Shown here piece by piece: positions 2,068-45,481 of a DNA stretch of 64,000 nucleotides; the stretch's first letter is position 1; every line of letters begins with the position of its first letter. The notes below the pieces were generated by a model that had not been told where the DNA came from, searched no databases, and was given only the letters and a program-made list of their open reading frames with translations. The stretch covers positions 85,368 through 149,367 of the forward strand of contig JBGTMQ010000017.1 of NCBI GenBank assembly GCA_041743505.1, given 5' to 3'. This stretch comes from Candidatus Saccharimonadia bacterium. GTDB taxonomy: Bacteria; Patescibacteriota; Saccharimonadia; UBA4664. A program made the position numbers and the translations under genes.

Positions 2068-3389
2068 AACCGGCAATGTGGCGAGCCAGCACTATACTGG
2101 CAGCCTTCGCTCTGTTCTTCGCAGCCTTGGCCTTCCCCGGCCAAGCCAGTCCGGCAGGCTGCGTGCCCGACCTTAGTCAGCGCTTACCCGTAATCCTGGT
2201 GCATGGCTTTAGCGATCGCCCAGCCGTCTGGGGCAGCGCCAATGATCCAAACTCCATGCTGCACACCGTTGGCCGGATCCCAAACACGTATGTCGAAACC
2301 TTCGACTACGAGTCCACTAACAAACGCTGGATCGACGACCCTGCAATTGGACGGAGTTTAGCTAGAAGAATTGCCTGTGTAGCAGCCTCCTCACGCCAGG
2401 CTAATGGACCCGGCAAGGTTATCGTTATCGGTCACTCGATGGGCGGACTAGCAGCTAAGTATGCCGCTACACAAACAGTGGAAGGCCACAAAGTTGCTGG
2501 TGACATTGGCCTAGTGGCAACCATAGGCACACCAAATACTGGTAATGGATGGGCCAATGGTTACGCACTTGTTCGCTCAGCCATTTGTTCAGCTATAACG
2601 ATGGCCAAAGCAGTGCAGTTGCAGTTCTTGTGTGATGGCGATGCAGTCGAAGGTTTACAAAGCCACTCGCAGCAAATCGACGCCCTACCCCCACTCCCTG
2701 GTAACATCCCCGTCATAGCCATTGCCGGCGACGTCACGGTCACCTACTCGTTCTTCCAGCTCACCCTGAAAGACACGGATAGCGATCTGATCGTTACCAA
2801 ACAATCCGCCCTCAAAGGGGCAGCCCATCCTAAATTGGGCGGCGGCGAAGAAGTGGTTGCATGCGAAACCAGCATTCAGGCGCTCGACCATGTCAAGCTT
2901 GGCTCTGCATTACCTGGCAATCCAGTCTTACCCTCCTGCTGGCACAACGGCCTGCCAAGCAACCAAGAGGTCAAGCTTGCGGTAACAAGCACCATCGAGA
3001 AGTACCAACGAGCTCTGGCAGCCAACCAGGCGCTTGCACCATACATCGGCACCTGGACGGTCCATGGCGGTAAGCTGGAGATCCGGCCCGACCGCACGGG
3101 CACTCACACGCTCAACCTCGGTTGTGGCGCTGCTGTCACTAACTGCAACGAGATCGACCAACTCACGTTCACGGGACCGGTCAACGGAACACTCACCGCT
3201 AAGGTAACGGGTGTATCGGTACCAACCGGACAGGCAGCCAACTACAAAGTTGGGGACACGTTTAAGCTCACACTCGAACGTGAAGGTCATATTCTGCGCA
3301 CTGCCTGGTCTGATAACAAAGACCATGGCAACCCTTACTGGTGCGACTCGCACGCGTCAACAAACAGTTTCACTGAATGCGGACAGTAA
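2037..3389 (+). CDS. secreted alpha/beta-hydrolase, lipase/esterase family (GHSMGG nucleophile elbow)
   Basis: N-terminal signal peptide. LVHGF...GHSMGG motif is typical of the bacterial lipase/PGAP1-like fold. The C-terminal ~130 aa is homologous to lipoprotein 32473..33027. Confidence 0.65.
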   Translation: MADSLHGGKMKPAMWRASTILAAFALFFAALAFPGQASPAGCVPDLSQRLPVILVHGFSDRPAVWGSANDPNSMLHTVGRIPNTYVETFDYESTNKRWIDDPAIGRSLARRIACVAASSRQANGPGKVIVIGHSMGGLAAKYAATQTVEGHKVAGDIGLVATIGTPNTGNGWANGYALVRSAICSAITMAKAVQLQFLCDGDAVEGLQSHSQQIDALPPLPGNIPVIAIAGDVTVTYSFFQLTLKDTDSDLIVTKQSALKGAAHPKLGGGEEVVACETSIQALDHVKLGSALPGNPVLPSCWHNGLPSNQEVKLAVTSTIEKYQRALAANQALAPYIGTWTVHGGKLEIRPDRTGTHTLNLGCGAAVTNCNEIDQLTFTGPVNGTLTAKVTGVSVPTGQAANYKVGDTFKLTLEREGHILRTAWSDNKDHGNPYWCDSHASTNSFTECGQ

Positions 3390-3550
3390 ATGAGGTGTCC
3401 CAAGGACGGAAATCTACGGCAAACCAGCCGCTAGGTATCCGTCCTTTTTAGTTGCGCCGGTTAAGCTTAATCCATCTGCCTTCACACTAAATGTAAGGAA
3501 CTTACATTTAAGTTCCCCGTGGTTATATGTAAGTTGCCTACATTTAGTGG

Positions 3551-5119
3551 CTACCTAATTACCCGACCCCTAGCTTGGCTAAGCTCGTGCTCCATCTGAC
3601 GAAAAATCCCGCCATCCTTTATCACCAATTCCACAATCTCATCCGCCCGCTGCTGACTCCCCGCCACACTATAAACCCGCAATTGAGGCGCATTACCCGA
3701 CGGCCGAAAATGCACCACATCGCCGTTATCAAAATAAATTCGCACTCCATCCAGGTGGTTCACCTTCTTAACCGTCCCAAACCCATGCTCAATCGTAAAA
3801 AACTCTCCCAGCTTAGCGTAAACAGCCCCAGTATCATGAGCAAACTCGGCCACAATGGCCCGCGACGCCTCAGCCGGAAAATTATCAACCAGCCCGGCCT
3901 GGCTGTACCGCCGAGGCAGCGCACCAAACAACTCAGACACCGACCGCCCTGACTCCGCTGCGGCCACCAGCGCTACCACAATCGGCAGTATCGCATCCCG
4001 GGTCGGCAATGGCGCCAGCGTCGCACCGTTAACCTCAAGCGGCGTCTGAGTCATAAACCCGCCGTTCACCTCCCAACCCACAGCCAAAGAGCCCGCTCCA
4101 GCTCCTTGAGCCATAGCCGAGATCACGTACGGCGAACCAATCCGGGTATGCCGCCATTCAATCCCCGCCGAGCCCAAGTAGCTGTCCGCCGCATCACTAG
4201 CCGTTACCGGGTAGGCCGCAAACTCAGCCTTCAGCCATACCGCCACCACAGCCCCCAGCACATCCCCGCGATGGAACTCGCCGGCAGCGTCAAACACCAT
4301 GGGCCGGTCACTGTCGCCGTCCGTCGACACAATCGCAAAGCTACCTGGATGTTCCTGCACCAACCGCACCACATATTCTTCGTGGTGAGACGTAATATTT
4401 TCGCTATCAAACGGCACAAACACATCCGACCGGCCCATCGGCACTGCCTCGGCCCCCAAGGCCGTCAAAATCTCAACCACCAGATCCCGGCCCACCGCCG
4501 AATGCTGGTACACCACCACCTTTTTACCCGCCAGCGGCCGCCCTTTAAAAATAGCCTTGAACCGGTCCACATACATCCGCTCTGCCGCCTCCTCGGCCGC
4601 CGGCAAATCCACCACCTCACGAAACTCACCCCGCTCGTCGAAAATCGCCTCCACAGCATCCACCGCATACAACTCCTGCCGCACCGACGCCACTGCCACC
4701 TTTATGGCCGCCTCGTCCTCCTTCAGTACCTCACCGTCAGGCTTATAAAACTTAATCCCGTTCCTATCAGCCGGAATATGGCTCCCCGTCACCATAATCC
4801 CCGCCGATTTGTGGCTTAGCGCAGCCAATCCCAGTGCCGGCGTTGGAATCAAACCACAATAATTAACCCGGCAACCCTCGTCGCCTGCCGCCCGCGCCAC
4901 CGACCGCATAATCCGCGGCGTGCTATCGCGCAAATCCCCGGCCACATACACCACGTCCCCGGCATCTAACTGCTTTGTTTGCTTCAGAAAGCGCAAAAAA
5001 CCTACCGTGTTGATGTAGCATTCCAAATCAGTCATATCCGTTACCAGATCGCGCAACCCCGAGGTCCCAAACGACAGCTCCCGGGGCTTATACGCTAGCA
5101 CATCACGCAGACAGGACAT
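3551..5119 (-). CDS. phosphoglucomutase-like alpha-D-phosphohexomutase
   Basis: FGTSGLRD sugar-phosphate loop and TGSHIPADRNGIKFY phosphoserine loop (a variant of TASHNP). Length fits E. coli Pgm-type enzymes. The ORF extends to 5155, but the start is probably the internal Met (MSCLRD...) at 5119. Confidence 0.7.
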   Translation of the reverse strand: MSCLRDVLAYKPRELSFGTSGLRDLVTDMTDLECYINTVGFLRFLKQTKQLDAGDVVYVAGDLRDSTPRIMRSVARAAGDEGCRVNYCGLIPTPALGLAALSHKSAGIMVTGSHIPADRNGIKFYKPDGEVLKEDEAAIKVAVASVRQELYAVDAVEAIFDERGEFREVVDLPAAEEAAERMYVDRFKAIFKGRPLAGKKVVVYQHSAVGRDLVVEILTALGAEAVPMGRSDVFVPFDSENITSHHEEYVVRLVQEHPGSFAIVSTDGDSDRPMVFDAAGEFHRGDVLGAVVAVWLKAEFAAYPVTASDAADSYLGSAGIEWRHTRIGSPYVISAMAQGAGAGSLAVGWEVNGGFMTQTPLEVNGATLAPLPTRDAILPIVVALVAAAESGRSVSELFGALPRRYSQAGLVDNFPAEASRAIVAEFAHDTGAVYAKLGEFFTIEHGFGTVKKVNHLDGVRIYFDNGDVVHFRPSGNAPQLRVYSVAGSQQRADEIVELVIKDGGIFRQMEHELSQARGRVIR

Positions 5120-6470
5120 TTTGCTCCCTAGTTTTGATAGTAGCCGACAGCGCATCCAGCTTAGCCTGCATCAACCCCGGCGTATTCGCCTCCAGATTCA
5201 GCCGGACAATCGGCTCCGTATTACTCATGCGCAAGTTAAACCACCAGTCAGAGTACTCCACGGTCAACCCGTCCAGCCGGTTTTGCTCTCCATCTTTATG
5301 AAGCTCACTCAAATAATCCAACAATGCCGGCGCATCGCTCACCGTAAAGTTCGTTTCCTCAGGCATGGAATAGCGGTTATACGAATCCACCAGCTCACTT
5401 AGCTTGCATCCGCTTTCAGTCAAAGCCACCATCGTCACAATGGCTCCAATAAGCCCCGAATCAGCATAGAAGTTCTCCTTAAAGAACAAATGCCCCGTCG
5501 TTTCGCCTCCAAACGGCGCCCCGGTCTTCATCATTTCGGCGCCAATACTCACCCGCCCGGCCTTGACACAGGTCGGCCGCCCACCCCATTCACGGATAAA
5601 CTCCCTAGTGGCCCGGCTCGTCCGAACTTCATGAACAATCTCGGCTTCAGGATACAGTTTCAAATAATGCTTTGCCACGATGGTCAATAAAACACTTCCA
5701 TCCACCGGCCGCCCTTTATCGTCCACAAACACCGCCCGGTCCCCGTCACCATCAAAAGCGATACCAAAATCCAAGCTACCTTCCTGGATCGCCGCCTGCA
5801 AATCCCGCAGGTTCTCCAGCTTGCGCGGGTTAGCCTCGTGGTTTGGGAATGTCCCGTCCAGCTCGTAATACAGCTCCTTAACATCCAATGACAATCGTGG
5901 CTGGATATGAGGTAAAATTGCCCCCGCCATGCCATTTCCCGTATCAATAGCGATACGGTACGGTTTCAGCGGCGTTGTCACAAACTGCAGGCAATGCTTC
6001 ACCCAGTCTTCGGTGATATCCCGCGGCCCTACACTTCCCGGTGTTGCCGCCGGCTCCTTATAGCGCGCATCCTTAACCGCGTCTCGAATCTCAGCCAAAC
6101 CGCCGTCCAAACCCACCGGCTGTACCTTGTCCCGGTATATCTTGATCCCGTTATACGCCCCCGGATTATGGCTGGCTGTCACCACTGCGCCACCCGCCAA
6201 GTCATAATGACCGACCGCAAAATAAATCATGTCGCTCGTGACTTCACCGATATCGATCACTTCGCGCCCTTGCTTCATCAAGCCGGCTTTAACCTCACCG
6301 GCCAATTCCTGCGAGTCCGGCCGCATATCATAACCAACGGCTACCGGACCCTCCACCGGCAAAAAGTCGGCCAACGCCCGGCCGATGCCATGGGCCAGCT
6401 CCGGCGTTAATTCTGTTCCTACTAGCCCCCGGACGTCGTACGCTTTAAAAATGTGGGTTGGAAAATTCAT
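5103..6470 (-). CDS. phosphomannomutase/phosphoglucomutase
   Basis: FKAYDVRG N-terminal motif, TASHNPGAYNGIKIY active-site serine loop, GDGDR metal-binding loop; 455 aa. Confidence 0.8.
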   Translation of the reverse strand: MNFPTHIFKAYDVRGLVGTELTPELAHGIGRALADFLPVEGPVAVGYDMRPDSQELAGEVKAGLMKQGREVIDIGEVTSDMIYFAVGHYDLAGGAVVTASHNPGAYNGIKIYRDKVQPVGLDGGLAEIRDAVKDARYKEPAATPGSVGPRDITEDWVKHCLQFVTTPLKPYRIAIDTGNGMAGAILPHIQPRLSLDVKELYYELDGTFPNHEANPRKLENLRDLQAAIQEGSLDFGIAFDGDGDRAVFVDDKGRPVDGSVLLTIVAKHYLKLYPEAEIVHEVRTSRATREFIREWGGRPTCVKAGRVSIGAEMMKTGAPFGGETTGHLFFKENFYADSGLIGAIVTMVALTESGCKLSELVDSYNRYSMPEETNFTVSDAPALLDYLSELHKDGEQNRLDGLTVEYSDWWFNLRMSNTEPIVRLNLEANTPGLMQAKLDALSATIKTREQNVLSA

Positions 6471-6529
6471 ATTCTCAGTGTATCACCAGATATTCCGGCC
6501 GCTTGCCTGTGCGCTATAATGCATGCATT

Positions 6530-7486
6530 ATGACCCGTCACAACCACCTCAACTCACCCGTATCATTAATCGGTATCCCCCTCGACCTCGGCGCCGAAAA
6601 CCTCGGCGTCGATATCGGTCCAGACGCCTTTCGTCACCAAAAAATCATCGACAAACTCAACCGCACCGGCCTCGCCATTACCGACCATGGCAACATCGCC
6701 GTAGCCGGCCGTGCCGGTCTCGACCCGGGCAGCCCCAACCAACGCTACCTGCCCGAAATCCTCAGCGTCAGCCAGCGTTCCGCCGAGCTCACCGAAGCCC
6801 AAATCCGCGCCGGCCACCGCATTGTCGGCCTCGGGGGCGACCATTCCGTCACGCTCGGCCTGGTTTCCGGCGCCCGGGCGGCTCTCACCGGCGCCATCGG
6901 CCTCATTTACTTCGACGCCCACGGCGACATGAACACCCCCGACACCACTCTCACTGGCAACGTCCACGGCATGCATCTAGCTGCTCTGCTCGGCTTCGGC
7001 GAACCAAAGCTCACTAATTTCCATGGCCCCTCACCCAAAATCGAGCCCCAAAACCTGCTCCACATCGCCGGCAACGACTTCGACCAAGCTGAACTCGACC
7101 TCATCGCCCGCGAGCACCTGGCCGCTTTCACCCTCACCGATGTCCTTACCCAAGGCTTAGGCCCGCTCTTCAAACGTATCAACGACCTCGCCGCTCGCGT
7201 CGACCATATCTGGGTCAGCTTCGACCTCGACGCCATCGACCGCCTCTACGCTCCCGGTGCCGGCATGCCCAATCCTGGTGGCCTCACCTACCGCGAAGTC
7301 GCCGCCCTAGCGACCCATATCGGCCAAACCTGTCCCGTTGCCGGACTCGACATCGTCGAATACAATCCGCTCACGGACGAGCACAGTCGCACCGCCGAGC
7401 TAGGCATTGAGCTCATCGCCAAGCTACTAGGTCACGACTACAACTGGTATTCCGATTATCTCGCCCGTAACGACGTCAACCGCTAA
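6530..7486 (+). CDS. arginase family protein (arginase/agmatinase fold)
   Basis: GGDHSVTLG, DAHGDMNTP and SFDLDAIDxxYAPGAGxPNPGGLTYRE manganese-binding motifs. The ORF opens at 6458, but the likely start is ATG 6530 (MTRHNHL...IGIPLDLG). A TATAAT at 6515-6520 lies only 10 nt upstream, suggesting a near-leaderless transcript. Confidence 0.75.
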   Translation: MTRHNHLNSPVSLIGIPLDLGAENLGVDIGPDAFRHQKIIDKLNRTGLAITDHGNIAVAGRAGLDPGSPNQRYLPEILSVSQRSAELTEAQIRAGHRIVGLGGDHSVTLGLVSGARAALTGAIGLIYFDAHGDMNTPDTTLTGNVHGMHLAALLGFGEPKLTNFHGPSPKIEPQNLLHIAGNDFDQAELDLIAREHLAAFTLTDVLTQGLGPLFKRINDLAARVDHIWVSFDLDAIDRLYAPGAGMPNPGGLTYREVAALATHIGQTCPVAGLDIVEYNPLTDEHSRTAELGIELIAKLLGHDYNWYSDYLARNDVNR

Positions 7487-7635
7487 TTACGTGGCCCTGT
7501 CATCCGGTCCAAAAACCGTTTCAGTAACTTCGTGCCAAGTCTAAACAGAACAATTCTTACAATCCATCGCATCAATACCGCCATATCTGACCTCCATCAG
7601 GTTACATTAACCCGTCCACCAACCGGATAAATCAG

Positions 7636-7998
7636 TCAATCCGCTAAATCAGCCGGCTTGCCCAGTAAACGCTCGCGCGCCCGGCTTGCGGCCACCTCCA
7701 TCCGCTCAGTCTCCCACGTCAAAACCTGCCTGCCAAGATCGGTTAGTGCATATATCCGCCTAGGTTTACCCCGGTTTAAAGCCCCGTCATTCTCCAGCTC
7801 ATAAATCAAACCCACTCTCAACAGCTTTCCCAATGCCGGGTACACCATGCCACTATTTGCTTTAAAGTATCGCCCAGCATCAGCTTGGGCCTTTTTTATC
7901 ACGTCATACCCCGTCATATAATTCTCCGCTAGTGCTAGCAAAATATGGTAAGTTTGCGGAGTTAAGGGCAAAAACTCCTCGCGGGAAGTTATATTCAT
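7636..7998 (-). CDS. PadR family transcriptional regulator
   Basis: Winged-HTH pattern YHILLAL..x..GYDV...SGMVYPALGKLLRVGLI. Start moved from 8088 to internal Met 7998, because the extension is occupied by ATGTAAG/CTTACAT operator palindromes. Confidence 0.6.
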   Translation of the reverse strand: MNITSREEFLPLTPQTYHILLALAENYMTGYDVIKKAQADAGRYFKANSGMVYPALGKLLRVGLIYELENDGALNRGKPRRIYALTDLGRQVLTWETERMEVAASRARERLLGKPADLAD

Positions 7999-8118
7999 AC
8001 CCACACTATATGTCAGCAACTTACATTTAGCCACGGGAACCATAAATGTAAGTTCATTACATTTAGCGAGTGGACACAGGGAGAACACTCACGAGTCAGA
8101 CTAATATCCAGCACGACC

Positions 8119-9417
8119 CTACTTCAATCGCCCCCGAATTGCCCCTCGTACCACCTCTGCTTCATCCCAAGGGTGCTCGCCATCCGCCCGCTCTATCATC
8201 TTTTCGTGCCCCTTGCCCAAAAACACCACCATATCACCCGTCCGCGCCTGCCCAATCGCAAAACCAATCGCCTCAGTCCTATCCGCCACCAAAAACAGAT
8301 CCTTATCCCGCGTTTTACCCGAGCTCTCAGCCCCTTCAGCTATCTGGCGCATTATCGCCGCTCCGTCCTCATCCCGGTCATCCTCCTCCGTCACCACTAC
8401 CACATCGGCAAATTTACCGGCCAAACTGCCCTGAATAGCCCGCTTACCAGCATCCCGCCGTCCTGCCGAACCAAACAACACAATCAGCCGGCCCTCAGTT
8501 AATTGCTTCATTTGGGGCAATAATTTCTCAAATGACTGCGGCGTATGCGCAAAGTCCACGATCACCCCATAATCCTGGCCTTCATCAAGGCTATTCATCC
8601 GCCCCGCCACCGTCTCCAGCGCCGCAATCCCGCGCTCAATTCGCTCTGCCGGCAGCCCCACAGCCAAACCCACGCCCACCGCCGCCAGCGAGTTCGACAC
8701 GTTAAACCCACCCGGCAAATTCACCCTCAGCTTTAACGTCTGCTCACCATACGTAACCTCGTACTCACTGCCATCAGCATCACTTTTGAGCTTAGCCGGC
8801 ACCAAATCAGCTTTCCCTAAACCATATCGGATCACGCTAGGCACCGCCGCCGCAAAATACTCCGCACTGGCATCATCCGCATTCACAATTCCCATCCGCA
8901 GTCCCCGCGCATTTCGTCCCGTCAGCTCAAACAACTTCACCTTAGCTGCCCGGTACCGCTCAAACGTCCCGTGATAATCCAGATGCTCGTGCCCCACATT
9001 CGTCATCACCGCCACGCTATACGGTATTCCCCACACTCGGTTCTGCGCCAACGCATGACTCGTCGTCTCCAGCACCAGCCACTCTATTCCCTCGGCCCGC
9101 AGCTCCGCAATCCGCCTAAGCATCGGCAGCGTCTGCATTGTGGTCATGTGGACCTGGTTATCATGCCAGTTTCCCGGCACCCCATAGCCAATCGTCGTCA
9201 TCAACCCCGTCTTCACCCCCGCATCATTGAGCATGGTATAAATCATGGTCGACGTCGTCGTCTTACCATCCGTCCCCGTCACCCCGATCACCTTCATACC
9301 CCGAGCCGGAAAGCCCGTCACCGTCTGCCACAATATTGACTCCAGCAGATGCCCGAACGGCTCAATGGACCTAAACAACCCCCGCGGAATAAGTGCTTTT
9401 ACAAGTTTGCGTAACAT
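8119..9417 (-). CDS. Mur ligase family protein (MurE-like UDP-MurNAc-peptide ligase)
   Basis: GVTGTDGKTTT P-loop, ETTSHAL and VDFAHTP Mur-ligase motifs. The N-terminal domain is short. The position normally holding DNPR/DDPR reads EEDDRDED, so amino-acid specificity is unclear. Confidence 0.65.
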   Translation of the reverse strand: MLRKLVKALIPRGLFRSIEPFGHLLESILWQTVTGFPARGMKVIGVTGTDGKTTTSTMIYTMLNDAGVKTGLMTTIGYGVPGNWHDNQVHMTTMQTLPMLRRIAELRAEGIEWLVLETTSHALAQNRVWGIPYSVAVMTNVGHEHLDYHGTFERYRAAKVKLFELTGRNARGLRMGIVNADDASAEYFAAAVPSVIRYGLGKADLVPAKLKSDADGSEYEVTYGEQTLKLRVNLPGGFNVSNSLAAVGVGLAVGLPAERIERGIAALETVAGRMNSLDEGQDYGVIVDFAHTPQSFEKLLPQMKQLTEGRLIVLFGSAGRRDAGKRAIQGSLAGKFADVVVVTEEDDRDEDGAAIMRQIAEGAESSGKTRDKDLFLVADRTEAIGFAIGQARTGDMVVFLGKGHEKMIERADGEHPWDEAEVVRGAIRGRLK

Positions 9418-14666: not shown

Positions 14667-15692
14667 TTAAGTATGCCGCCGCCCCAAAAGCCGCCGCCCA
14701 ATCGGCTTAGCTAGCGGCCATAACCGCTCCCACAACTTATAACCAAACTTATTCAACGGATAATCCCATGTGCCTATATAATCCGTCTCATCCGGACCAA
14801 ATCCGTCCTTAAAGCGGGAAACTCCCTCATTCAGCCGGCCGTTAAAGTCGTACACATGATATCCGGCCACCTTCATATCCATCATGACCCGCCATTTCAA
14901 AAAGTAGTTAGCCTTCAACTCCTGGCCCTCAACCGTCACGCCACCATACAGCTCGTAAGCAGTCTCCCCGGCTGTCCCCAACCATAAAAATGCCACCGGC
15001 CGCCCCCCAACCCGTGCATAATACAACCAACCCTGCGGTCCAAATTGGCTATACAGAACCGAATAATAGTCCTCTGTGTGAATGCCAAAACCAGCCCGTT
15101 TCGCCGTTTCTCCGTAAATCTCGTACATCGGCCCCAGATCACCAGCCGTTTCCCGCATCACCTCCACGCCGTCACGCTCAGCCTTGCGAATGTACTGACG
15201 ATGCTTGCGCGCCATCGGCGCAAGTATCGCCTCCTCGGGCTTCGTCAGGTCAATGGTGTAAGTCTCACCCAGCTGAATCTGGTTCACCGCCTTCACCCAC
15301 CCGGGCGGCAGTTTAGCCTTAGTCCAAGCCGGCTCCAGCCTCACATACAGCACCCGGTGCGCCTTGGCCCACTCCGCCAGTTGCCGCAACAACATCACCA
15401 TAGCCGGATTAGTCGGATCTACTACCGGCCCACGCGGCACATACGCCACAAACCGGCCGGTATGCGGTATGGGCCACAGCAGCACCTGCACCGCCGCCGC
15501 CCACTCGCTGCCGGCCTGCAGCGCCAGGCGGTACGGCACCCAGCTGTTGGTTCGTTTAGCCTCGCCCCAACCCCAAAGCTGCAACGGATGGCCTTGCGGA
15601 TGCCCGGCTACATATGCGTCCCAGGTCCCAGCATCAGTTATTTCGACGATTTGCATAGCCGCATTGTACCCGATTTGCCACCGCTTGTTCAT
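14667..15692 (-). CDS. FemAB-family peptidoglycan peptide-bridge aminoacyltransferase (paralog)
   Basis: 341 aa, same architecture as 13551..14597 (LQLWGWGEAKRTNSW...). Tandem paralog. Confidence 0.65.
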   Translation of the reverse strand: MNKRWQIGYNAAMQIVEITDAGTWDAYVAGHPQGHPLQLWGWGEAKRTNSWVPYRLALQAGSEWAAAVQVLLWPIPHTGRFVAYVPRGPVVDPTNPAMVMLLRQLAEWAKAHRVLYVRLEPAWTKAKLPPGWVKAVNQIQLGETYTIDLTKPEEAILAPMARKHRQYIRKAERDGVEVMRETAGDLGPMYEIYGETAKRAGFGIHTEDYYSVLYSQFGPQGWLYYARVGGRPVAFLWLGTAGETAYELYGGVTVEGQELKANYFLKWRVMMDMKVAGYHVYDFNGRLNEGVSRFKDGFGPDETDYIGTWDYPLNKFGYKLWERLWPLAKPIGRRLLGRRHT

Positions 15693-15760
15693 CCACTAGT
15701 TGACCATCACACCTAACGCATGCTATCAACTCGATATGGCATCACTTCGGGGGAGGGTCC

Positions 15761-17323: not shown

Positions 17324-18595
17324 CTACTCTGCATCGTTCGACTGCCACCACTTATCCCACTGCTGCTTTACTGCATCCCGGTCGCTCTTAGGTAGGGTAC
17401 CAAGAATAAATACCTTGCCATTATCGGCAAATAGCTGGTTGAAGACGGTTAGAATCTCGGCCCTGGTGATGCCTTGAATGACGGCACACAGGTCGGCAAT
17501 AGATACCGTCTCACCGGTGAGCTGGTAATACCAGGCCAACGTATCGAGCTCGTTTCTGGGGAAGTATCGGTCGATCATCATGGTTGTTGTGCGATGATGC
17601 ACGTAGGCCCCGTATTGCTCGTCGGTAAGATCACGGCTGAATGCTCGTAAACCCTGCTCGAGCGCCATGTAGAAGGGCAGCACCTTACCGGGCGCAAAGC
17701 TCGCCACAATCTCAAATGTACCGCAAAAGTTAAGGGTGTTGGCATCGACCGCCAAATCATAAATCAGGCCCTTATCCCGCAAATAACGCCAGAGGTACGC
17801 CTGAAGCATCTCGGCGAGCAGATCGACCGTTGCATCATCCTTCAGGGTGCGCCACGGGTAAAAATGAATGTATCCGAACCTGACTTGCTCGGCTTTGTAC
17901 GATTTCAGCGCTAAGCTCTTGTTGTGCGAATTGGGGCCCATCAGCTCGAGCGGTGCAGCCGCATAGGTAGAACCTTCCGGCACGACTCGTTCGAGTTCGG
18001 CGGCAAAGGCCTGGGTGTCGATCTCACCAGCAACCGCCAGGATTGCACCGTCCGGCAGATAGTAGCGTTTGCGAAACTCAAGCACCGCGCCGACCGACTC
18101 GGGCATATCAAATGCTTCCGGGTCGCGGCCAAGCGATGAATCCAAGCCGTAAAAGCCTTCGAGCGTGTAGGCATTATGCCGTGACTCAAGTGTATCGCGC
18201 TCCCCTAGCGACTCCTCCGTAATGACACCAAATTGGGTCTGTAATTTGTCATCGGGCAGATCAATGGGTGCAAATATAGTTTGGATTGCAGCAATGGCTT
18301 GGGAAAGATCCTCTTTAGGAACCGCAAACGAATAAATCGTATTCATCGAGTACACCGCCGCCGAAAACGTATCCCGGATATATACCGGTATCCAGCTTGC
18401 TTGGTCAAAGGAATCATGCAGCTTATCTGAGATAACATGCTCGATTAGGTGGGAAAATCCATGCTCCCCGTCTCCCTCATGGGCCGCACCGACCGGCAAG
18501 GACAATTGGAAATAGACCGCCTCGAGTTTGGAGTAGTCGGATACGGTAATGAGTGTAAGCCCATTGGATAATGTCTTGGTGGTGGCTGATTTCAT
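17324..18595 (-). CDS. M16 family (pitrilysin/insulinase-like) zinc peptidase
   Basis: HxxEH inverted zinc motif (GFSHLIEHV), size 423 aa. Confidence 0.65.
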   Translation of the reverse strand: MKSATTKTLSNGLTLITVSDYSKLEAVYFQLSLPVGAAHEGDGEHGFSHLIEHVISDKLHDSFDQASWIPVYIRDTFSAAVYSMNTIYSFAVPKEDLSQAIAAIQTIFAPIDLPDDKLQTQFGVITEESLGERDTLESRHNAYTLEGFYGLDSSLGRDPEAFDMPESVGAVLEFRKRYYLPDGAILAVAGEIDTQAFAAELERVVPEGSTYAAAPLELMGPNSHNKSLALKSYKAEQVRFGYIHFYPWRTLKDDATVDLLAEMLQAYLWRYLRDKGLIYDLAVDANTLNFCGTFEIVASFAPGKVLPFYMALEQGLRAFSRDLTDEQYGAYVHHRTTTMMIDRYFPRNELDTLAWYYQLTGETVSIADLCAVIQGITRAEILTVFNQLFADNGKVFILGTLPKSDRDAVKQQWDKWWQSNDAE

Positions 18596-18625
18596 ACGGT
18601 GATTATAGCGGATTTAAAACAAAGC

Positions 18626-18990: not shown

Positions 18991-19581
18991 CTAACCCAGC
19001 AAATGTCTGCCGCGCTCGTCAATCTCAACCGCACCCTGTCGGATAACCTCAATCTCATCAGCCACCACCCGAATAATCGTCGAAGGCGCCCGCCCTGACA
19101 AATCGCCCTTGTCTACGTAAAAATCCACCTTGTCACCAAAATAATCCCGCGCTTCCTGCAAAACAGTCGCGCCAGGCTCACCAGGCTGATTTGCACTCGA
19201 AGTCACCAACGGACCTGTCTGTTCAAGAACTTGCCGCACGTGCTCATCAGCCACCACCCGGAACCCCTGCCTCCCCGTATCCTGATGCAAATAGGCCAAG
19301 TCCTCGCCCAATGGCGTTTCCACGCTCAGCGGATTCGGCCACCACCGCTCAACCCGGCGCAAATGCTGCTCAGGCACCCCCAACTCAATCAGCTGCTCCA
19401 CACTCGCCGCAATCACTGTCCCCGGCTTCCGCTCCCGTCGCTTCAGCGCGTACAGCCGCGCCACAGCCGCCTTATCAGCCGCCCGGGCCACCAATCCATA
19501 CACCGTATCCGTCGGCATCACACCCACGCCGCCCGCATTCAGGATGGCTACCGCGTCTTCAGCTAAGTGTGTTGTTATCAT
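18991..19581 (-). CDS. tsaC: L-threonylcarbamoyladenylate synthase TsaC/YrdC/Sua5 family
   Basis: PTDTVYGL...KxRxxxKP YrdC signature. Conserved start at Met 19581; the ORF extends to 19713. Confidence 0.8.
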   Translation of the reverse strand: MITTHLAEDAVAILNAGGVGVMPTDTVYGLVARAADKAAVARLYALKRRERKPGTVIAASVEQLIELGVPEQHLRRVERWWPNPLSVETPLGEDLAYLHQDTGRQGFRVVADEHVRQVLEQTGPLVTSSANQPGEPGATVLQEARDYFGDKVDFYVDKGDLSGRAPSTIIRVVADEIEVIRQGAVEIDERGRHLLG

Positions 19582-19725
19582 CCGCTCTATTATAATTACC
19601 TTGCCAAAAGTGTCAATTGGTGGCATATTATCCAAGGACAAACCGGTCGCATCACCAGTCAGCCCGCACCTACTCATCTGGCAGGTCCAAAAGACGCTGC
19701 CAAGACTACGCAAAGGAGCATAACC

Positions 19726-20046
19726 ATGTCAGCTACGGTCACGTCGAGCCCACACTATCAGGTCTCGACCGAGCCCGGGCAGCATGATGGCCTTACCGCA
19801 GACCAGCTAACCGAGATCGACGTTGAATTCATCGTTGCGCTCGGCAATCTCGTCAAACCGGGTACAGATCCGAAAACTATCATTCCGGCGCTGGCAAGCC
19901 GGCTAAGGTACTTTCCGCCTGAGCACATTGCCCTGGCTCTCGATCGTAGCCGCGCAACCGGAGGTCTTGCTCGCCTGGTTAGTTTGTACAAAGATGAGCA
20001 TCCTCCCGTGGTAACGGACGCGCTCGACCGCTGCTACCATCGGTAA
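19726..20046 (+). CDS. hypothetical protein
   Basis: ATG 19726 is preceded by an AAAGGAG RBS; 106 aa, no motif recognised. Confidence 0.4.
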   Translation: MSATVTSSPHYQVSTEPGQHDGLTADQLTEIDVEFIVALGNLVKPGTDPKTIIPALASRLRYFPPEHIALALDRSRATGGLARLVSLYKDEHPPVVTDALDRCYHR

Positions 20047-32472: not shown

Positions 32473-33027
32473 ATGTTCATGCGAGCGGGAATCATCATCT
32501 TTACCCTGTTCTGCGCCATCGCAGCAGCAGGATGCAGTAGCTCCCTCGCTGGATCCAGCCCTGATACTGCTAGTCTTCCTGGTCGCGAGGACCGTACGGT
32601 TGTCCTCAACGATGCGAGATTCGGATCATACGTTGGCACCTGGAGCCTGCATGGCGCCACCCTGGTCATCGACCGGCAGCGCACGGGCACCCAAACCACC
32701 AACCTCGGGGAATGCTTCCCGGACCCCAACGCCGAGTCAACCGCCATGTGCAATGAAGTTGCTCACCTCAAGTTCACCGAGCCAACCGCCGACGGCATCA
32801 CCGCCACGGTCACCTCGGTGGAATACAAGGAATGGGGCGAGGATACAGCACCCGAGGGCTATCGCCCCAACCCCAACGTCGGCCTACAAACCGGCGACTC
32901 GTTCAGGCTAGCTCTTCACGGCCAAAACACCCTCCTCACCACGTGGCTCGGCCGCAAAGAGCACCTCAACACCGGCGTCAATCCCAATTGGTGCAAGAAC
33001 GGCACCACCTCCGAATGCGGTGCGTAA
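32473..33027 (+). CDS. hypothetical lipoprotein sharing a domain with the C-terminus of the 2037..3389 lipase
   Basis: Lipobox FTLFCAIAAAGCSSS. Residues ~50-184 align with the lipase C-terminal domain (W..HG..L.I.R.RTGT.T.NLG.C...C.E...L.FT.P..G.TA.VT.V...GD.F.L.L....L.T.W.....G.NP.WC......EC). Confidence 0.55.
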   Translation: MFMRAGIIIFTLFCAIAAAGCSSSLAGSSPDTASLPGREDRTVVLNDARFGSYVGTWSLHGATLVIDRQRTGTQTTNLGECFPDPNAESTAMCNEVAHLKFTEPTADGITATVTSVEYKEWGEDTAPEGYRPNPNVGLQTGDSFRLALHGQNTLLTTWLGRKEHLNTGVNPNWCKNGTTSECGA

Positions 33028-33123
33028 CGGCACATAACAATGCGCCCCCAGGACGGAATCCACAGCAATCCAGCTGTGAGATCTCCGTCCTTTTTATTTT
33101 GCTTTCACGAACAAATAATTGCT

Positions 33124-33376: not shown

Positions 33377-33644
33377 TTCACGAACTCGACTACTATACCG
33401 CGAGGCAGCGTTTTGCTCAAGCCCTTTTAGCCATAAAAAATTAGCCCGGCACAAAGGCCGGGCATAAACGCCAATGCCCAAGCATTAACGAAAAGGTACA
33501 GGCAATGAAGTTAATCAGCTAACGGTGGCGGCAGGCGATCCCCGCACGGATCTTACGTGCCTGCCGCCACCTCCCTTCTCCCTCCACCCATTTCGAAAGG
33601 AGAAAGTCTCGGACCTGCTATAAATGTAAGCCCAAATTAGTTCT

Positions 33645-33929
33645 CTATTCAACCCGTTGATGCAATATCAGAGTAGTCCGGCCAAACCGATGCTTTTCGC
33701 TAACAAGAACTGCGCGCCCCTTTTGGGTAAGCCGGTAGCAGCGGGTTTGCGGCACTTTAATAGTAAAACCCTCCTGTACCAGGCGATTAATGGCCTTATA
33801 AAGCGACCGCTCACTCGCAAGCACAATGCTCTGAGTATCTTCAGCGATTTGTTGGTGAATACCCGGTACATCAAGTTCATCTACAGTGAGGGCAAGCAAG
33901 ACATATAAGGTTAATGGAGATGGCGGCAT
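33645..33929 (-). CDS. PadR-like winged-helix transcriptional regulator
   Basis: LYVLLAL...x...SLYKAINRLVQEGF pattern. Start placed at Met 33929; the ORF extends to 33983. Confidence 0.45.
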   Translation of the reverse strand: MPPSPLTLYVLLALTVDELDVPGIHQQIAEDTQSIVLASERSLYKAINRLVQEGFTIKVPQTRCYRLTQKGRAVLVSEKHRFGRTTLILHQRVE

Positions 33930-34137
33930 AAAGGTATTTCTAATTATTCTAACGAGGGTACTGTACCGAGGGCAGTAAATCAAATATAGGCATCTATTTA
34001 TTGCTTACATAAGGCAAAATATAACACCCATCCATTGCTCACTGCCCTGAGGGCAGAAGGTAGCCACAGGGAAAACAGAAAAGATCAGGGAATCCCGCCG
34101 AATTCAACCCATTTCAAGTTCAACCCGTATTCCCGTA

Positions 34138-37485: not shown

Positions 37486-37528
37486 AAGTCAAAACATTCT
37501 TTGACAAACGAGTCAAAACCTGTTACTT

Positions 37529-40051
37529 TTGTTGATTGTGTTTTTGGTGAATCACATCTGGGGGAGGGCAGCTAGACAATCGCTGTGGGCGATCCTGTTT
37601 GCTGTGCTCTTGTGCCTGGTGCCTCAAGCCGTTTCCGCCGCCGGCGAATCCTACACCTGGCAAGGCACAGGTGACGCCAGCATTGTAGCCTCCGGCGGTA
37701 ACTTCGGGGTCAATAAAACCACCTTCGCCAAGACCGCCGACGCCGGCGGAAGCGCCACCTTTACCGCCAACGCCACCTATGAATGTAGCGGCAAAACCGT
37801 CACCGGCCCGCTTACCATCACAGTGGCTGCCGACAAGTACAAAAAAGCCTACCCCACCGAAGGAAGCGTTACGGGCGCCGGCGCTGCCTGTGCCTTTACG
37901 GCCGCGGTAATCAGCAAAGCCAACGTCGATCAGGTCACCGGCCAGCCCGTCCCCGCCGCCGGCCAGGACCCACGGGAAAGCTGCGACCAAGGCGGGTTTA
38001 CCTGGCTGTTCTGCCCCGTCATCGACAATATATCCTCAGCCGTTGCCGGCCTGGCCCGGGACGTGCTGGGGCCCATGCTTGAGGTCAAACCAATCAGCCC
38101 AGAAACCACACCGGATCTCTACAAAACCTGGACTCATATCCGTGACTTTGCTGTAGTCCTGTTTATTCTCGTGTTTTTTGCCATTATCGGCGCCACACTC
38201 ATACAACAAGATATCGGCGGCTTCGACCAATATACCGTCAAAAAGATCTTGCCCCGACTGGTTATTGCCTCAATCATGGTACAGTTTAGCTTCCTCATCT
38301 CAGGCATTATTGTCGATATCGGAAATGTCCTTGGAGGTGGCATCGGCCACTTGCTGTCTGCGGTCACTGATCCATCCAAAGGCCCGGCCAGCTTCACCAA
38401 CCTGGTCGGCAACCTGGTCACCGGAAGTGTAGCCTCGGTTGCAGGACTGGGCGCCGTCGCCGTCCTGGCGTCGTGGACTGTCGCAATCCCTGTGCTGCTC
38501 GGCCTGCTCTTGAGCCTGCTGACCGTCTTCCTGACGCTTGGCGCCCGCTTCCTCATCCTGGCCGTCCTGATCGCCATCTCACCGATAGCCATGCTCGCCT
38601 GGGTCCTCCCGAACACTCGCGATTTTGCCGCCGCCTGGTTCGAGTTTTTCGTCCGGCTCGTCCTAATGTACCCGCTGGTTATCCTCATCATCTCCGTAGC
38701 CGGCATCGTCAACCAAATACTGCCGTTTAGTGGCGACACCGCCAATAGCGGCAGCGCAGCAGTCGCAGTAGCCCTCATCAAGCCGCTTGTCGTCATTGCC
38801 GCCTTCCTCATTATTCCCATCAGCTTCAAGCTCGCCGGGCTAGCCCTGAGCCGTATCCATGGCCTGCTCACCGGCGTTGCCCAACAGGGTAAAGGCCTCA
38901 TCAAGGGCAGCGATATGTACCAACGGGGCCTCGAGGACCGTCAGGGACGCAAGAATACCTACATGGGCCGCGTCCTCAACTCCAAAACCATCAGCTCACT
39001 CCAAAATAAGGGGCGCGGCGGCCAAGCAGTCGGCGGTTTCATGAGCGGCGCCGCCGCCGTAGCCTTAATGCGCGCCCCCGCCAGCAAAGCCGCTTTGCAA
39101 CGCAGTAACTCTGCACTAGTGGCCAAGCGGGAAAAGAATCTGACCGAAATCAAAGAGGCCCAAAACCCCAACAACCTCAAAGCCGCTTTAGCCGCCATGA
39201 ATGGCGACGAAAGCGCCCGGGCCAAGCTGCAAAGAACCGCTCCAGACTTACTCCGCCTGGCTTCAACCGCTTCCGGCCGCGAAGCCATGTTCAACCGCCT
39301 TCTCGCCACTGAGTTCGCCGACAGCAAAGACCTTGACCAGTTCCGCACAACCGCACCAAAACGCGGCCTCAAATACTTTGGTGTCACCGGTGATACATCC
39401 GCGGAATGGCGCTCCCTGCGTGACGCCGGCCAGGCCAAACGTAACCAGTTACCGACCATCGTACAGCGGCTCGAACAAGCCAAAACCTACGACGTGGTTG
39501 ACCGCGCCGGCAACACGCTCAAGACCATTTCCCGTGACATGGGCGCCGTTGATATGAATGGCGTCTCCAAGTCATTCGCCAAATACACCGCTGCCAAGCT
39601 GGCCGATGTCTCGCCGGATGTCTTTGAAATGATGACCGACACCGCCAACCCAATCGCCGCCATGGATGCTGCCGAGGCCATGGCCATTGGATTGGAGCCA
39701 CGGCAACTCGCCAAAGTCTTCGACCCCAATGACCGCAACCCGGCTCCCCCTGAGCGCAAGATCGCTATCGCTAAAGCTATGCGGGCCCAATATGAGAACG
39801 TCTGGAACACCAACGATGAATACCGCTCCACCTTCGACGCCATGCATCATCAATTGGTCCGCGACGACAAGCTTGGCGTCCAGCTAACCCGTACCGCCGG
39901 CGCCACCGAAACCCAGCTCCGTGCCCTCTCAAACGAAGGCCAATCCTACGTTGCCTCGCGCTGGCTCAAAGACAAGAACTTCAAGTACTCAGATCTAAGC
40001 GGCATGACCGTCGCCGACATCAACGCCGCCGGCCATGCCCTCCGGAGATAA
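37529..40051 (+). CDS. VirB6/TrbL-like polytopic T4SS membrane protein with long hydrophilic C-terminal extension (paralog A)
   Basis: TTG start (the exact start is uncertain). Signal peptide, then a Cys-containing exported segment (CDQGGFTWLFCPVIDN), at least 6 TM helices (DQYTVKKILPRLVIASIMVQFSFLISGIIVDIGN...), then a ~400-aa Ala/Lys-rich soluble tail. Confidence 0.55.
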   Translation: MLIVFLVNHIWGRAARQSLWAILFAVLLCLVPQAVSAAGESYTWQGTGDASIVASGGNFGVNKTTFAKTADAGGSATFTANATYECSGKTVTGPLTITVAADKYKKAYPTEGSVTGAGAACAFTAAVISKANVDQVTGQPVPAAGQDPRESCDQGGFTWLFCPVIDNISSAVAGLARDVLGPMLEVKPISPETTPDLYKTWTHIRDFAVVLFILVFFAIIGATLIQQDIGGFDQYTVKKILPRLVIASIMVQFSFLISGIIVDIGNVLGGGIGHLLSAVTDPSKGPASFTNLVGNLVTGSVASVAGLGAVAVLASWTVAIPVLLGLLLSLLTVFLTLGARFLILAVLIAISPIAMLAWVLPNTRDFAAAWFEFFVRLVLMYPLVILIISVAGIVNQILPFSGDTANSGSAAVAVALIKPLVVIAAFLIIPISFKLAGLALSRIHGLLTGVAQQGKGLIKGSDMYQRGLEDRQGRKNTYMGRVLNSKTISSLQNKGRGGQAVGGFMSGAAAVALMRAPASKAALQRSNSALVAKREKNLTEIKEAQNPNNLKAALAAMNGDESARAKLQRTAPDLLRLASTASGREAMFNRLLATEFADSKDLDQFRTTAPKRGLKYFGVTGDTSAEWRSLRDAGQAKRNQLPTIVQRLEQAKTYDVVDRAGNTLKTISRDMGAVDMNGVSKSFAKYTAAKLADVSPDVFEMMTDTANPIAAMDAAEAMAIGLEPRQLAKVFDPNDRNPAPPERKIAIAKAMRAQYENVWNTNDEYRSTFDAMHHQLVRDDKLGVQLTRTAGATETQLRALSNEGQSYVASRWLKDKNFKYSDLSGMTVADINAAGHALRR

Positions 40052-40084
40052 AACTGCTCACCAGAGCCACAAACCACAAGCAGT

Positions 40085-40113
40085 TTGACATTTTTGTAGG
40101 CTTGGTGTATAAT
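40085..40113 (+). promoter_or_regulatory. consensus sigma70 promoter
   Basis: TTGACA-17 nt-TATAAT read directly in the sequence, about 100 nt upstream of the 40212 gene. Confidence 0.6.
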
Positions 40114-40211
40114 GTAGTTATGATTTGGAAGCAATACTAAAACTCCAAATCTGTTGATCCGGCATCCGCTGGATTTGACAACTCACGAGACATAGCCCGA
40201 GGGGGGCCGAA

Positions 40212-40907
40212 ATGTCTGCACCACTGAAGGACCAGCCACGGCTATACGAGACGCCGGCCTCACCGCCGGCTCGCGACAAGTTCCGGCACCGTCACCCAGT
40301 TATCTTCTGGGGCTTGATCTTAAGCCCGGTGCCATTACTTATCATTGCCTTCATGGCATTGGTACTACTGGCCAGCGCGCTGCCTGATGTCCCATCCGCG
40401 GCATCACCAGCTCCCGGCAGCATCAGCTCCACCCAGGGACAGGTAACCGCGCCGGCGCCACAGCGGGCCGACCCCACCAAGCAATACGATCTGTCCACGC
40501 CCACGGGTAAGATCGCGGCCTCAGATGCAATTGTGGCCATGGGCCCGCTCAAGACTGAATACTACCTCGATGCTACCGCCAGCGAGGTCGAAATCCGGGA
40601 CTGGGTCATAGACGTCGTGTTCATGCACTGCAACCCTTCAAACCGCTTTACCCGGTTTGACCTTCTGGCGCCGAACATCATTGCCGATCCCGTCCCCGGG
40701 AATTCGGTATATGATCTCTTCGACAACTGTGCCACTATCGGCACTCCAACCACGCAGTACCAGTACATGCTCAACCCCGTTCCAAATAAACCGGTCCGCC
40801 AGTACGACTGGGTCCTGGTCCGCCCGGGTCAACCGGACACCATGGCCACCGTACACCTCACCTGGAGGTCTGACCATTGGCTCATCACGGCAGTCAGCCC
40901 CCACTGA
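40212..40907 (+). CDS. hypothetical bitopic membrane protein (VirB8-like topology)
   Basis: 231 aa. Short cytoplasmic N-terminus, one TM helix, ~160-aa extracytoplasmic domain. The size and topology resemble VirB8, but no sequence motif confirms it. Confidence 0.4.
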   Translation: MSAPLKDQPRLYETPASPPARDKFRHRHPVIFWGLILSPVPLLIIAFMALVLLASALPDVPSAASPAPGSISSTQGQVTAPAPQRADPTKQYDLSTPTGKIAASDAIVAMGPLKTEYYLDATASEVEIRDWVIDVVFMHCNPSNRFTRFDLLAPNIIADPVPGNSVYDLFDNCATIGTPTTQYQYMLNPVPNKPVRQYDWVLVRPGQPDTMATVHLTWRSDHWLITAVSPH

Positions 40908-41013
40908 CCAGTCCGCGAAACAGCCCGCCCTAGCGACGTAGATACCCATCTACGGAGCTAGGGCATTTTTTGTTTTGATACATTGATTCCGCTCATGCTA
41001 AAATCGAGTCATC

Positions 41014-43716: not shown

Positions 43717-43739
43717 CAATCCCCCGACAACTTGCTTAC

Positions 43740-43768
43740 TTGCTAATTATTAGTAAATATGCTATAAT
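43740..43768 (+). promoter_or_regulatory. sigma70 promoter with extended -10
   Basis: TTGCTA-17-TGcTATAAT upstream of the 43846 gene. Confidence 0.55.
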
Positions 43769-43845
43769 AAATAATCTATTTGTGCTTCTTTTTTATATGA
43801 ACACATATAGCGCCCCCGACAGCCTCGACAAGACAGGAAAAGCTA

Positions 43846-44532
43846 ATGAGCAAGCAAGGTTGGGAAGCGTACAAAGCAGACGCCCTCAAGCGGCTTGAAG
43901 GTCGTGACGTACAAGCGCCGAGTCAACCAACCCAGACGCTGGGTCAGACACCTCAAGCGCCAACGACTGCACAGGCACCAACTGCTGAGTTTGATCCTGC
44001 GGCAGCATTCCGCGCACACCAAGCCACCGAGCAAACACGTCAACGTGAGCTCGCACAACAGCACGCAGCAGAACGTGAGCTTACTCAAACAAGAGCCCGA
44101 GAGCTTTCAGCTTTCATCGAACGCCTTCGGATGCTCCTGTCCAAAAAAGGCTCACCTGGGCTAACAAGCTTCGAGATTCAGTTAACATATTCCATGTATG
44201 AACCAGCGGTACGGCGAAGGAGTGGTCGTATAATTTCTCCCGAAAAAGAAACACCCCCGACATATCGGACAGAATGGGGCTGGGAGATTGCAAGTATTCA
44301 AGGCCCCGGTGACTATATCTCGTCGCCTCGTTATAATCTCATGCTCTGTAGAGATGGAGCACTATGGGTTACTCTTGGAGCTAGAACATACCTCGATATA
44401 AGTGACGAAACCGGCAATTTCACCCTGACTTGCCGACAAACATCACTTTCACTAGCTAGGCTAGAAGCCGACATCATTCCGGGAGTGGCGAGGTTAGTTG
44501 ATAACCTCAATCTCCAGTGGGATGGCAACTAG
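43846..44532 (+). CDS. hypothetical protein, cassette paralog 1 (candidate T4SS-associated substrate)
   Basis: 228 aa. N-terminus MSKQGWEAYKADALKRLEGR, then a Q/P/T-rich low-complexity segment, a coiled coil, and a C-terminal globular domain (TEWGW.IA...NLMLC.DG.LWVTLG...DIIPGV.RL...L.WDGN). No signal peptide. Confidence 0.5.
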   Translation: MSKQGWEAYKADALKRLEGRDVQAPSQPTQTLGQTPQAPTTAQAPTAEFDPAAAFRAHQATEQTRQRELAQQHAAERELTQTRARELSAFIERLRMLLSKKGSPGLTSFEIQLTYSMYEPAVRRRSGRIISPEKETPPTYRTEWGWEIASIQGPGDYISSPRYNLMLCRDGALWVTLGARTYLDISDETGNFTLTCRQTSLSLARLEADIIPGVARLVDNLNLQWDGN

Positions 44533-44540
44533 CTGTCCAC

Positions 44541-44575
44541 CCCGCCCCTTGCGAACTGCAGGGGGTCTTATTATT
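44541..44575 (+). terminator. conserved terminator element, copy 1
   Basis: CCACCCCGCCCCTTGCGAACTGCAGGGGGTCTTATTATTT: stem CCCCTTGC/GCAGGGGG plus a T-run. Confidence 0.6.
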
Positions 44576-44630
44576 TACCAATAAATGCTCCGCAAAGCCG
44601 CTGTTTGTGGGCGAATTCCTTCTTACACGC

Positions 44631-44659
44631 TTGCAAGAATTGCAGAAATATGTTATAAT
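44631..44659 (+). promoter_or_regulatory. sigma70 promoter with extended -10
   Basis: TTGCAA-17-TGtTATAAT. The -10 region ATGTTATAATTAACTAT is nearly identical to the one at 32421..32437. Confidence 0.55.
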
Positions 44660-44722
44660 TAACTATCTATCACTCTCCTGAGTTGTTAGTGCACCAACTT
44701 CCGCTACAGACAGGACAACCCG

Positions 44723-45388: not shown

Positions 45389-45398
45389 CCCATCAGCC

Positions 45399-45432
45399 CC
45401 GCCCCCTGCGAAACTGCAGGGGGTCTTTTTAA
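45399..45432 (+). terminator. conserved terminator element, copy 2
   Basis: CAGCCCCGCCCCCTGCGAAACTGCAGGGGGTCTTTTT. Confidence 0.6.
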
Positions 45433-45452
45433 TAAAAACATACGCGTAAAGA

Positions 45453-45481
45453 TTGACAAAATATTAAATACAATATATAAT
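45453..45481 (+). promoter_or_regulatory. consensus sigma70 promoter
   Basis: TTGACA-17-TATAAT upstream of the 45578 gene. Confidence 0.6.

Follow-up and report, generated by a model that had tools for sequence, protein, structure and literature searches.

A 65 bp PadR-type operator module present in two inverted copies in a Saccharimonadia genome segment: a predicted padR promoter and a copy between convergent genes

Why should a PadR-type operator be found at a place where two genes end? The question is raised by a 64,000 bp stretch of Candidatus Saccharimonadia bacterium (GenBank assembly GCA_041743505.1, contig JBGTMQ010000017.1, positions 85,368 to 149,367, forward strand), referred to here in its full length as the window. 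A gene coding for a PadR family regulator, padR, is preceded in this DNA by ATGT/ACAT palindromes, and the same palindromes recur between an alpha/beta-hydrolase gene and a phosphoglucomutase/phosphomannomutase (PGM/PMM) family gene, pgm2, that are transcribed toward each other. The original prediction, made from the sequence alone, reported shared motifs at 3487..3550 and 8005..8065, and all of the motif strings that it quoted are present where it placed them. It overlooked, however, that the two loci are inverted copies of one 65 bp module. We designate the copy at the convergent junction module A and the copy in front of padR module B. The account that we consider reasonably probable, from the sequence comparisons below, is that B is a self-repressed padR promoter and A is a promoter-less orphan duplicate of it. 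Gene regulation in Saccharimonadales and in other bacteria of the Candidate Phyla Radiation (CPR) is, to our knowledge, almost unstudied, and the locus offers a repressor-operator pair that is clean and open to testing, built on an exact unit of 65 bp, in which the second copy could be an internal control in binding studies.

Two inverted copies of a 65 bp module

Module A occupies 3485-3549 and is read on the forward strand (CACTAAATGTAAGGAACTTACATTTAAGTTCCCCGTGGTTATATGTAAGTTGCCTACATTTAGTG), and module B is read on the reverse strand from 8068 to 8004 (CGCTAAATGTAATGAACTTACATTTATGGTTCCCGTGGCTAAATGTAAGTTGCTGACATATAGTG). The two copies are identical at 55 of 65 positions when aligned in inverted orientation, compared with 45 of 65 in direct orientation. 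Each is composed of a palindrome (O1), a spacer of 11-13 nt that includes CCCGTGG, and a second palindrome (O2), and the centers of O1 and O2 are 36 bp apart in both. Because the spacers (TTCCCCGTGG and GTTCCCGTGG) are not palindromic they fix the orientation of the copies, which are inverted relative to each other and separated by 4,519 bp. A repeat search extends the match to 79 nt at 80% identity, with arms at 3471-3549 and 8004-8082. No other inverted repeat in the window is longer than 32 nt, which makes this pair the only long one.

The four ATGT-N9-ACAT palindromes, at 3491-3507 and 3527-3543 in A and at 8010-8026 and 8046-8062 in B, are the only ones in the window, and all conform to the consensus PadR operator, ATGT-(N)8-10-ACAT (PMC3506622, PMC5428041). 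The half-site core TAWATGT is invariant in all eight half-sites, the consensus half-site being CTAAATGTAAG. In module A, O1 (3487-3511, forward strand) is CTAAATGTAAG-GAA-CTTACATTTAA, whose core is a perfect 9-3-9 palindrome, and O2 (3523-3547) is TTATATGTAAG-TTG-CCTACATTTAG; in module B, read on the reverse strand, O1 (8042-8066) is CTAAATGTAAT-GAA-CTTACATTTAT and O2 (8006-8030) is CTAAATGTAAG-TTG-CTGACATATAG. Scanning the window with ATGTAAG-N5-TACAT and allowing up to two mismatches yields 11 strand hits, compared with 2.72 +/- 1.81 in shuffled sequence, and not one of 100 shuffles reaches 11; the eight matches with no more than one mismatch are all confined to A and B. The G+C content of the modules is 35-37%, that of the window 54%.

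The modules also have a second structural property. O1 and O2 are approximately reverse complementary, and each module therefore folds as one long RNA hairpin, with energies of -25.5 and -26.2 kcal/mol for A and -20 and -15 kcal/mol for B (z-scores of -4 to -7), and both sit directly past a reverse-strand stop codon, A after pgm2 and B after murE. Neither has the composition of a Rho-independent terminator, since the G+C content is low and there is no T-run or U-tract, and terminator scans return nothing at either position. Terminal inverted repeats are trivially present, as in elements resembling miniature inverted-repeat transposable elements (MITE) or repetitive extragenic palindromes (REP), but there are just two copies in 64 kb and no target-site duplication is seen at the module borders. 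A metagenome scan with TAAATGTAAK-N3-MTTACATTTA returned 53 hits, mostly on contigs of low G+C content, of which none adjoins a PadR open reading frame (ORF) and none resembles the window.

The predicted padR promoter and the copy at the convergent junction

The padR gene (7636-7998, reverse strand) encodes an apparently single-domain, short PadR family regulator of 120 aa, which scores 49.6 bits against Pfam PF03551 over residues 19-93 (cut-off 27). Its winged-helix domain matches PDB sequences of AphA of Vibrio (1YG2, E 3e-6) and Bacillus subtilis PadR (5X11, E 4e-5). The length fits the PadR-s2 subfamily (about 110-130 aa) and the homologues are 119-133 aa long; all of the PDB sequence matches are to two-domain proteins. 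No close relatives are present in a set of 5.8 billion proteins, in which the best matches besides the protein itself are 39-43% identical. The ATG at 7998 is favored as the start codon because the N-terminus MNITSRE aligns with MNITSRD of a homologue (P0002) and because of the spacing of a TATAGT hexamer 6 nt before it. A database gene call (P0001) is 135 aa long, starting from an ATG at 8043 inside the operator spacer, and judged against this alignment it is probably too long. Translation of the module itself was considered and rejected, since all differences between the copies are non-synonymous in that frame and PadR aligns with the P0002 protein from 7998; a 26-codon ORF in the region of A (3519-3599) shares the frame of the P0001 N-terminal extension.

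Read toward padR, module B (8004-8068, reverse strand) consists of O1, the spacer and O2, followed by 6 nt and the ATG. The center of O1 is 55.5 nt and that of O2 19.5 nt upstream of the ATG. The putative -10 hexamer TATAGT (8005-8010) lies in the right half of O2, and a weak -35-like TGGCTA is present in the spacer at 8028-8033, 17 nt upstream of it, such that the operator covers what would be its own gene's core promoter, with a predicted transcription start. There is no Shine-Dalgarno sequence before the padR ATG. Because a hexamer at this distance from the ATG is typical for the genome, and a Shine-Dalgarno sequence is lacking, we infer that the padR mRNA is leaderless.

A TAnnnT hexamer is found 5-9 nt before an ATG near the ORF 5' end in 19 of the 60 large ORFs of the window, compared with 3.1% of internal in-frame ATGs, a pattern that points to frequent use of leaderless promoters in the lineage. 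These hexamers are often TATAAT or TACAAT, with clear cases of TATAAT-6-ATG and TACAAT-6-ATG, and examples of such starts are seen at the reverse-strand genes 17324-18613, 14667-15695, 18991-19728 and 57004-58125. GGAG-type Shine-Dalgarno sequences are present at other genes of the window, often within operons.

The layout of module B recurs at distant PadR genes. In a Candidatus Saccharimonadales metagenome-assembled genome (CAZGZY010000053.1; L017), a pattern scan finds two perfect TATATGTC-N7-GACATATA palindromes with centers 36 bp apart, the second 20.5 nt from the start codon, followed by TATAGT, 7 nt and the PadR ATG. In GCA_040383985.1 (L002), whose PadR begins MNITSRD, TATCTAC-N5-GTAGATA occurs twice, at a center-to-center distance of 34 bp, and the second copy is centered 18.5 nt before the ATG. 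In both loci a (T/G)ATAGT hexamer precedes the ATG by 7 nt and, as in the window, padR is monocistronic with a convergent gene downstream of it. The half-sites themselves differ from those of the window, and the proteins are only 34-39% identical to its PadR. No second module is present in either within the 7-20 kb of available flank. The three PadR genes thus share a two-palindrome layout with lineage-specific half-sites, and half-sites that vary with the protein at constant geometry point to a cognate operator rather than a mobile repeat; the recurrence of the layout at unrelated PadR genes likewise ties the module to PadR. A double ATGT-N9-ACAT is found at 26 loci of the genome collection, and at four of these, three of them in Firmicutes, it adjoins a PadR ORF, with centers 32-38 bp apart. 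Relatives at 35-43% identity have a single TATATC-N7-GATATA palindrome just past a canonical TTGACA-N17-CATTAT promoter.

Autoregulation, which had been proposed for the palindromes upstream of padR, agrees with both the published consensus and the layout at these distant genes; regulation of padR by its own product at a double operator has good support and is of an ordinary kind, and B is very likely an autorepressed leaderless padR promoter. Two PadR dimers would bind O1 and O2 of B, centered 36 bp apart. The dimer at O2 would cover the TATAGT together with the interval between the -35 and -10 sequences (positions -31 to -7, for a transcript starting at the ATG at 7998), and that at O1 would lie just upstream of the weak -35-like hexamer, centered at -55.5. 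Bound PadR would exclude RNA polymerase, and some ligand would release it.

Module A has a quite different context. It lies between the terminator of the hydrolase gene, which is on the forward strand and ends at 3389, and the pgm2 stop codon (3551-3553), which is 1 nt past the end of A (3549) and 3 nt past the end of O2 (3547). The original prediction held that two genes end here with no obvious promoter to be controlled, and closer inspection bears this out. The position equivalent to the padR -10 hexamer is TTTAGT (3543-3548), where ACATATAGTG in B corresponds to ACATTTAGTG in A, and it lacks the -11 A that is present in all of the predicted -10 boxes of the window. The bases that follow it (GGCTACCTAATT) contain no ATG, GTG or TTG at +6 to +9, and the region has no Rfam match and no supported ORF.

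A is also where the gene order departs from that of relatives. In three Saccharimonadales genomes with 61-64% PGM2 identity (L037, L039 and L040), the order is tsaD, murE, a variable slot, pgm, pgm2 and groES-groEL, the last with a CIRCE (controlling inverted repeat of chaperone expression) element, and in two of the three there is one small gene between pgm2 and groES-groEL. The closest PGM2 homologue is 64% identical, and the homologues are annotated as Candidatus Saccharimonadales. In the window, murE (8119-9417, reverse strand) is upstream of padR on the same strand, and the slot between murE and pgm (5103-6470, reverse strand) contains padR and an arginase-family gene (6530-7486, forward strand) that is convergent with padR and scores 189 bits against the arginase model, below the equivalog cut-off of 227.6; in the relatives the slot contains unrelated genes. 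Beyond pgm2 (3551-5119, reverse strand), which encodes all four PGM/PMM domains, module A marks the exact point at which synteny is lost, and neither groES/EL nor the genes that follow it in the relatives occur anywhere in the window. The three relatives contain neither a PadR gene nor an ATGT-N9-ACAT palindrome. From this comparison padR and the two modules appear to be restricted to this lineage, and A appears to be at a rearrangement junction. We considered whether A and B are the two ends of an inverted 4.5 kb segment. The three relatives, however, share with the window the order and relative orientation of murE, pgm and pgm2; the modules therefore do not mark a simple inversion, and a net inversion was rejected.

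A scenario consistent with these observations is that an operator pair was duplicated and landed at a rearrangement point after pgm2, where it would have kept two binding-competent palindromes, lost the -11 A and found no start codon behind it. PadR would probably still bind A, without a gene of its own to control, and A would at most titrate the repressor or block polymerases leaving pgm2 or the hydrolase gene. Judged from its sequence and position, A is thus most likely an orphan operator pair at a rearrangement point, possibly bound by PadR. Any role for this copy would be of interest mainly to those studying PadR proteins or how genomes rearrange at palindromic operators.

Several observations weigh against an inert duplicate, or against details of this account. 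The symmetric half-site positions are retained equally in the two modules (18 of 22 in A and in B alike), and the similarity between A and B drops off at the edges of the module, as it would if the flanks of A had decayed around a conserved core or if the duplication had been highly precise. The half-sites are nevertheless not more conserved than the remainder, with differences at 7 of 44 half-site positions and 2 of 17 elsewhere, and selection on A is therefore not demonstrable. Further copies, or the true target promoters, may exist outside the 64 kb window. At B itself the promoter could possibly be placed differently, with a -10 sequence on the left border of O2, as the relatives that have TTGACA-N17-CATTAT would suggest; PadR would occlude RNA polymerase in the same manner. 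Finally, a consensus promoter scan finds TTCACA-16-TACATT at 3481-3508 on the forward strand, and although matches of this quality occur at chance frequency (one found, 0.7 expected), some promoter activity at A could exist given this match.

Alternative roles for the modules

The last observation bears on the alternative that survives best, which we nevertheless regard as unlikely, namely that A is an active PadR-controlled promoter whose transcription, directed rightwards, enters pgm2 from its 3' end and yields a cis-antisense or non-coding RNA. The promoter side of A does face pgm2, A retains a -35-like TGGTTA in addition to the TTCACA/TACATT pair, and a simple scan finds no forward-strand terminator from 3549 to 7486. 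An RNA from A could then extend unterminated through pgm2 and pgm into the arginase-family gene in an excludon-like arrangement, and PadR would switch between the pgm operon and the arginase gene. A repressor would also be expected to have a target besides itself, and A is the only other site in the 64 kb. Against this, TTTAGT does not have the -11 A of the TAnnnT hexamers found at the leaderless-type starts of the window, and downstream there is no start codon, Rfam match or credible ORF, the 125-aa forward-strand ORF at 3575-3952 being antisense to the four-domain pgm2.

Less probable again is that A has been maintained as a promoter-less distal operator pair, through which PadR either loops to B or acts as a ligand-releasable roadblock between the convergent genes. 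A roadblock, or a role at the RNA level, is conceivable for the modules, and if the distal operator or roadblock were real it would be a case of a PadR family protein acting outside promoter occlusion, in a reduced-genome Saccharimonadales bacterium of the CPR.

Looping as such, with the dimer pairs at A and B cooperating across 4.5 kb to tighten the repression of padR or to insulate the segment containing pgm2, pgm, the arginase-family gene and padR, we consider improbable. Lambda CI loops DNA between OL and OR, and A and B are likewise two operator pairs, here of the same design, inverted, 4,519 bp apart and with their palindromes intact. However, 4.5 kb is long for a loop, and at the distant homologues no second module is seen in the 7-20 kb available. 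We know of no described case of long-range looping by PadR proteins, although the literature on it was not looked for, and this too counts against looping. Higher-order DNA complexes have been seen for cdPadR1 (PMC5050560).

Least probable of all is that the modules are copies of a hairpin-forming repeat, whether MITE/REP-like or a terminator or stabilizer acting at the RNA level, as each is a large imperfect inverted repeat with a stable RNA fold, both copies follow reverse-strand stop codons and A is in a convergent gap where a terminator is expected, but unrelated PadR genes share the layout with different half-sites, L017 and L002 have it at the same distance from the start codon, and a U-tract, a detectable terminator, a target-site duplication, copies beyond the two in 64 kb and related palindromes among the metagenome matches are all lacking.

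Surrounding features and relation to known PadR systems

A second PadR-like gene is present at 33648-33929 on the reverse strand. It encodes 94 aa and is 23% identical to PadR; its Pfam score of 26.4 bits narrowly misses the cut-off of 27. Half-sites had been reported to flank it, and these are indeed present, with ATAAATGTAAG at 33620-33630 and CTTACAT at 34004-34010; of the seven occurrences of ATGTAAG in the window, five are in the modules and the other two are these (33624 and 34004). Each is single, however, and neither has a partner half-site. From base composition, 0.29 copies of the 9-mer AAATGTAAG are expected per window and, by extrapolation, about 0.07 copies of the 10-mer TAAATGTAAG found at 33621, such that the co-location is mildly odd; as operator sites the two are unsupported. 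A third operator at this gene was rejected: the half-sites stand alone, with neither a spacer nor a second palindrome, and the similarity of the protein to PadR is only distant. With these lone half-sites and no further palindrome in the window, the small PadR regulon that had been suggested is not borne out here. Upstream of the second PadR-like gene, at 33930-34137 (reverse strand), there is a repeated motif CTGCCCTCAGGGCAG (a 7-1-7 palindrome at 34044-34058), with CTGCCCTCGGTACAGTACCCTCG nearer the start codon; these may be the second regulator's own operator or the terminator of the upstream gene.

The stretch from 3390 to 3550 had also been proposed to hold an unannotated small gene or RNA, a suggestion that is not sustained. 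Folding reveals an intrinsic terminator of the hydrolase gene at 3403-3449 on the forward strand, a long hairpin (3403-3445) followed by T5, which is outside module A. The C-terminal domain of the hydrolase together with this terminator (3040-3453) is paralogous to 32627-33099, about 29.6 kb away, with 71-79% DNA identity, and the paralogous terminator at 33057-33099 maintains its hairpin through one compensatory change from G-C to A-U; the paralogy stops short of module A. The hydrolase terminator accounts for the stretch, and a small RNA was rejected. With Rfam 15, five tRNAs are the only matches in the window at gathering thresholds, and 3300-3900 has nothing at E<=1. Potentially new ORFs overlapping 3385-3600 are of 22-26 codons and unsupported.

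Among other features of the window, we note a type IV secretion-like block at 37505-56277, which includes a TrbL/VirB6-like protein (37505-40051), a TraG/VirB4-like P-loop ATPase (48222-50114), a protein with a phage-tail-lysozyme domain (53040-54419), and several large ORFs (904, 984 and 479 aa) with no Pfam match. At 43801-46283, three consecutive ORFs of about 220-245 aa (43801-44532, 44690-45388 and 45575-46240) contain repeats spaced by about 853-877 nt, and downstream of each ORF is a conserved hairpin that is G+C-rich and has a T-run (repeat families D1, D4, D10 and D15); the arrangement looks like a tandem paralogous gene array with a terminator for each gene. Both dnaN (58662-59900) and dnaA (60719-62107) are present on the reverse strand, and the window therefore probably adjoins a replication origin.

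The closest parallels to module B are found in characterized PadR proteins. In Clostridioides difficile, cdPadR1 (CDR20291_0991), a member of PadR-s2, regulates itself through a 100 bp promoter containing two separate inverted repeats, each of which is specifically bound (PMC5050560). It is a short single-domain protein, as the PadR of the window appears to be, and both have two inverted repeats in the promoter region of their own gene, but the half-sites of cdPadR1 are TACT-N11-12-AGTA, about 200 copies of the motif are reported genome-wide (PMC5050560), its host is a Firmicute, and no duplication of a whole promoter-operator module is described for it. LmrR of Lactococcus lactis, also PadR-s2, recognizes ATGT-(N)n-ACAT repeats and represses its own gene as well as a second promoter (PMC5428041, PMC4534193), and two dimers are proposed at the lmrR promoter (PMC5428041, PMC4534193). 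Whereas the second site of LmrR controls an adjacent ATP-binding cassette transporter operon, the second site in the window faces two gene ends; the similarity of the proteins is at the level of the family, and LmrR is absent from the PDB sequence matches at E<=1e-3. B. subtilis PadR (5X11) and AphA (1YG2) share the winged-helix domain and the canonical ATGT-N8-ACAT operator logic, but they are two-domain proteins of about 180 aa, a subfamily named PadR-s1 (PMC3506622), and the PadR described here has 120 aa and an operator spacing of N9. Paired palindromes in the promoter of a PadR gene are already published, and the operator logic of module B is that of textbook PadR autoregulation, making the locus with its inverted second copy a curiosity rather than a new type of system.

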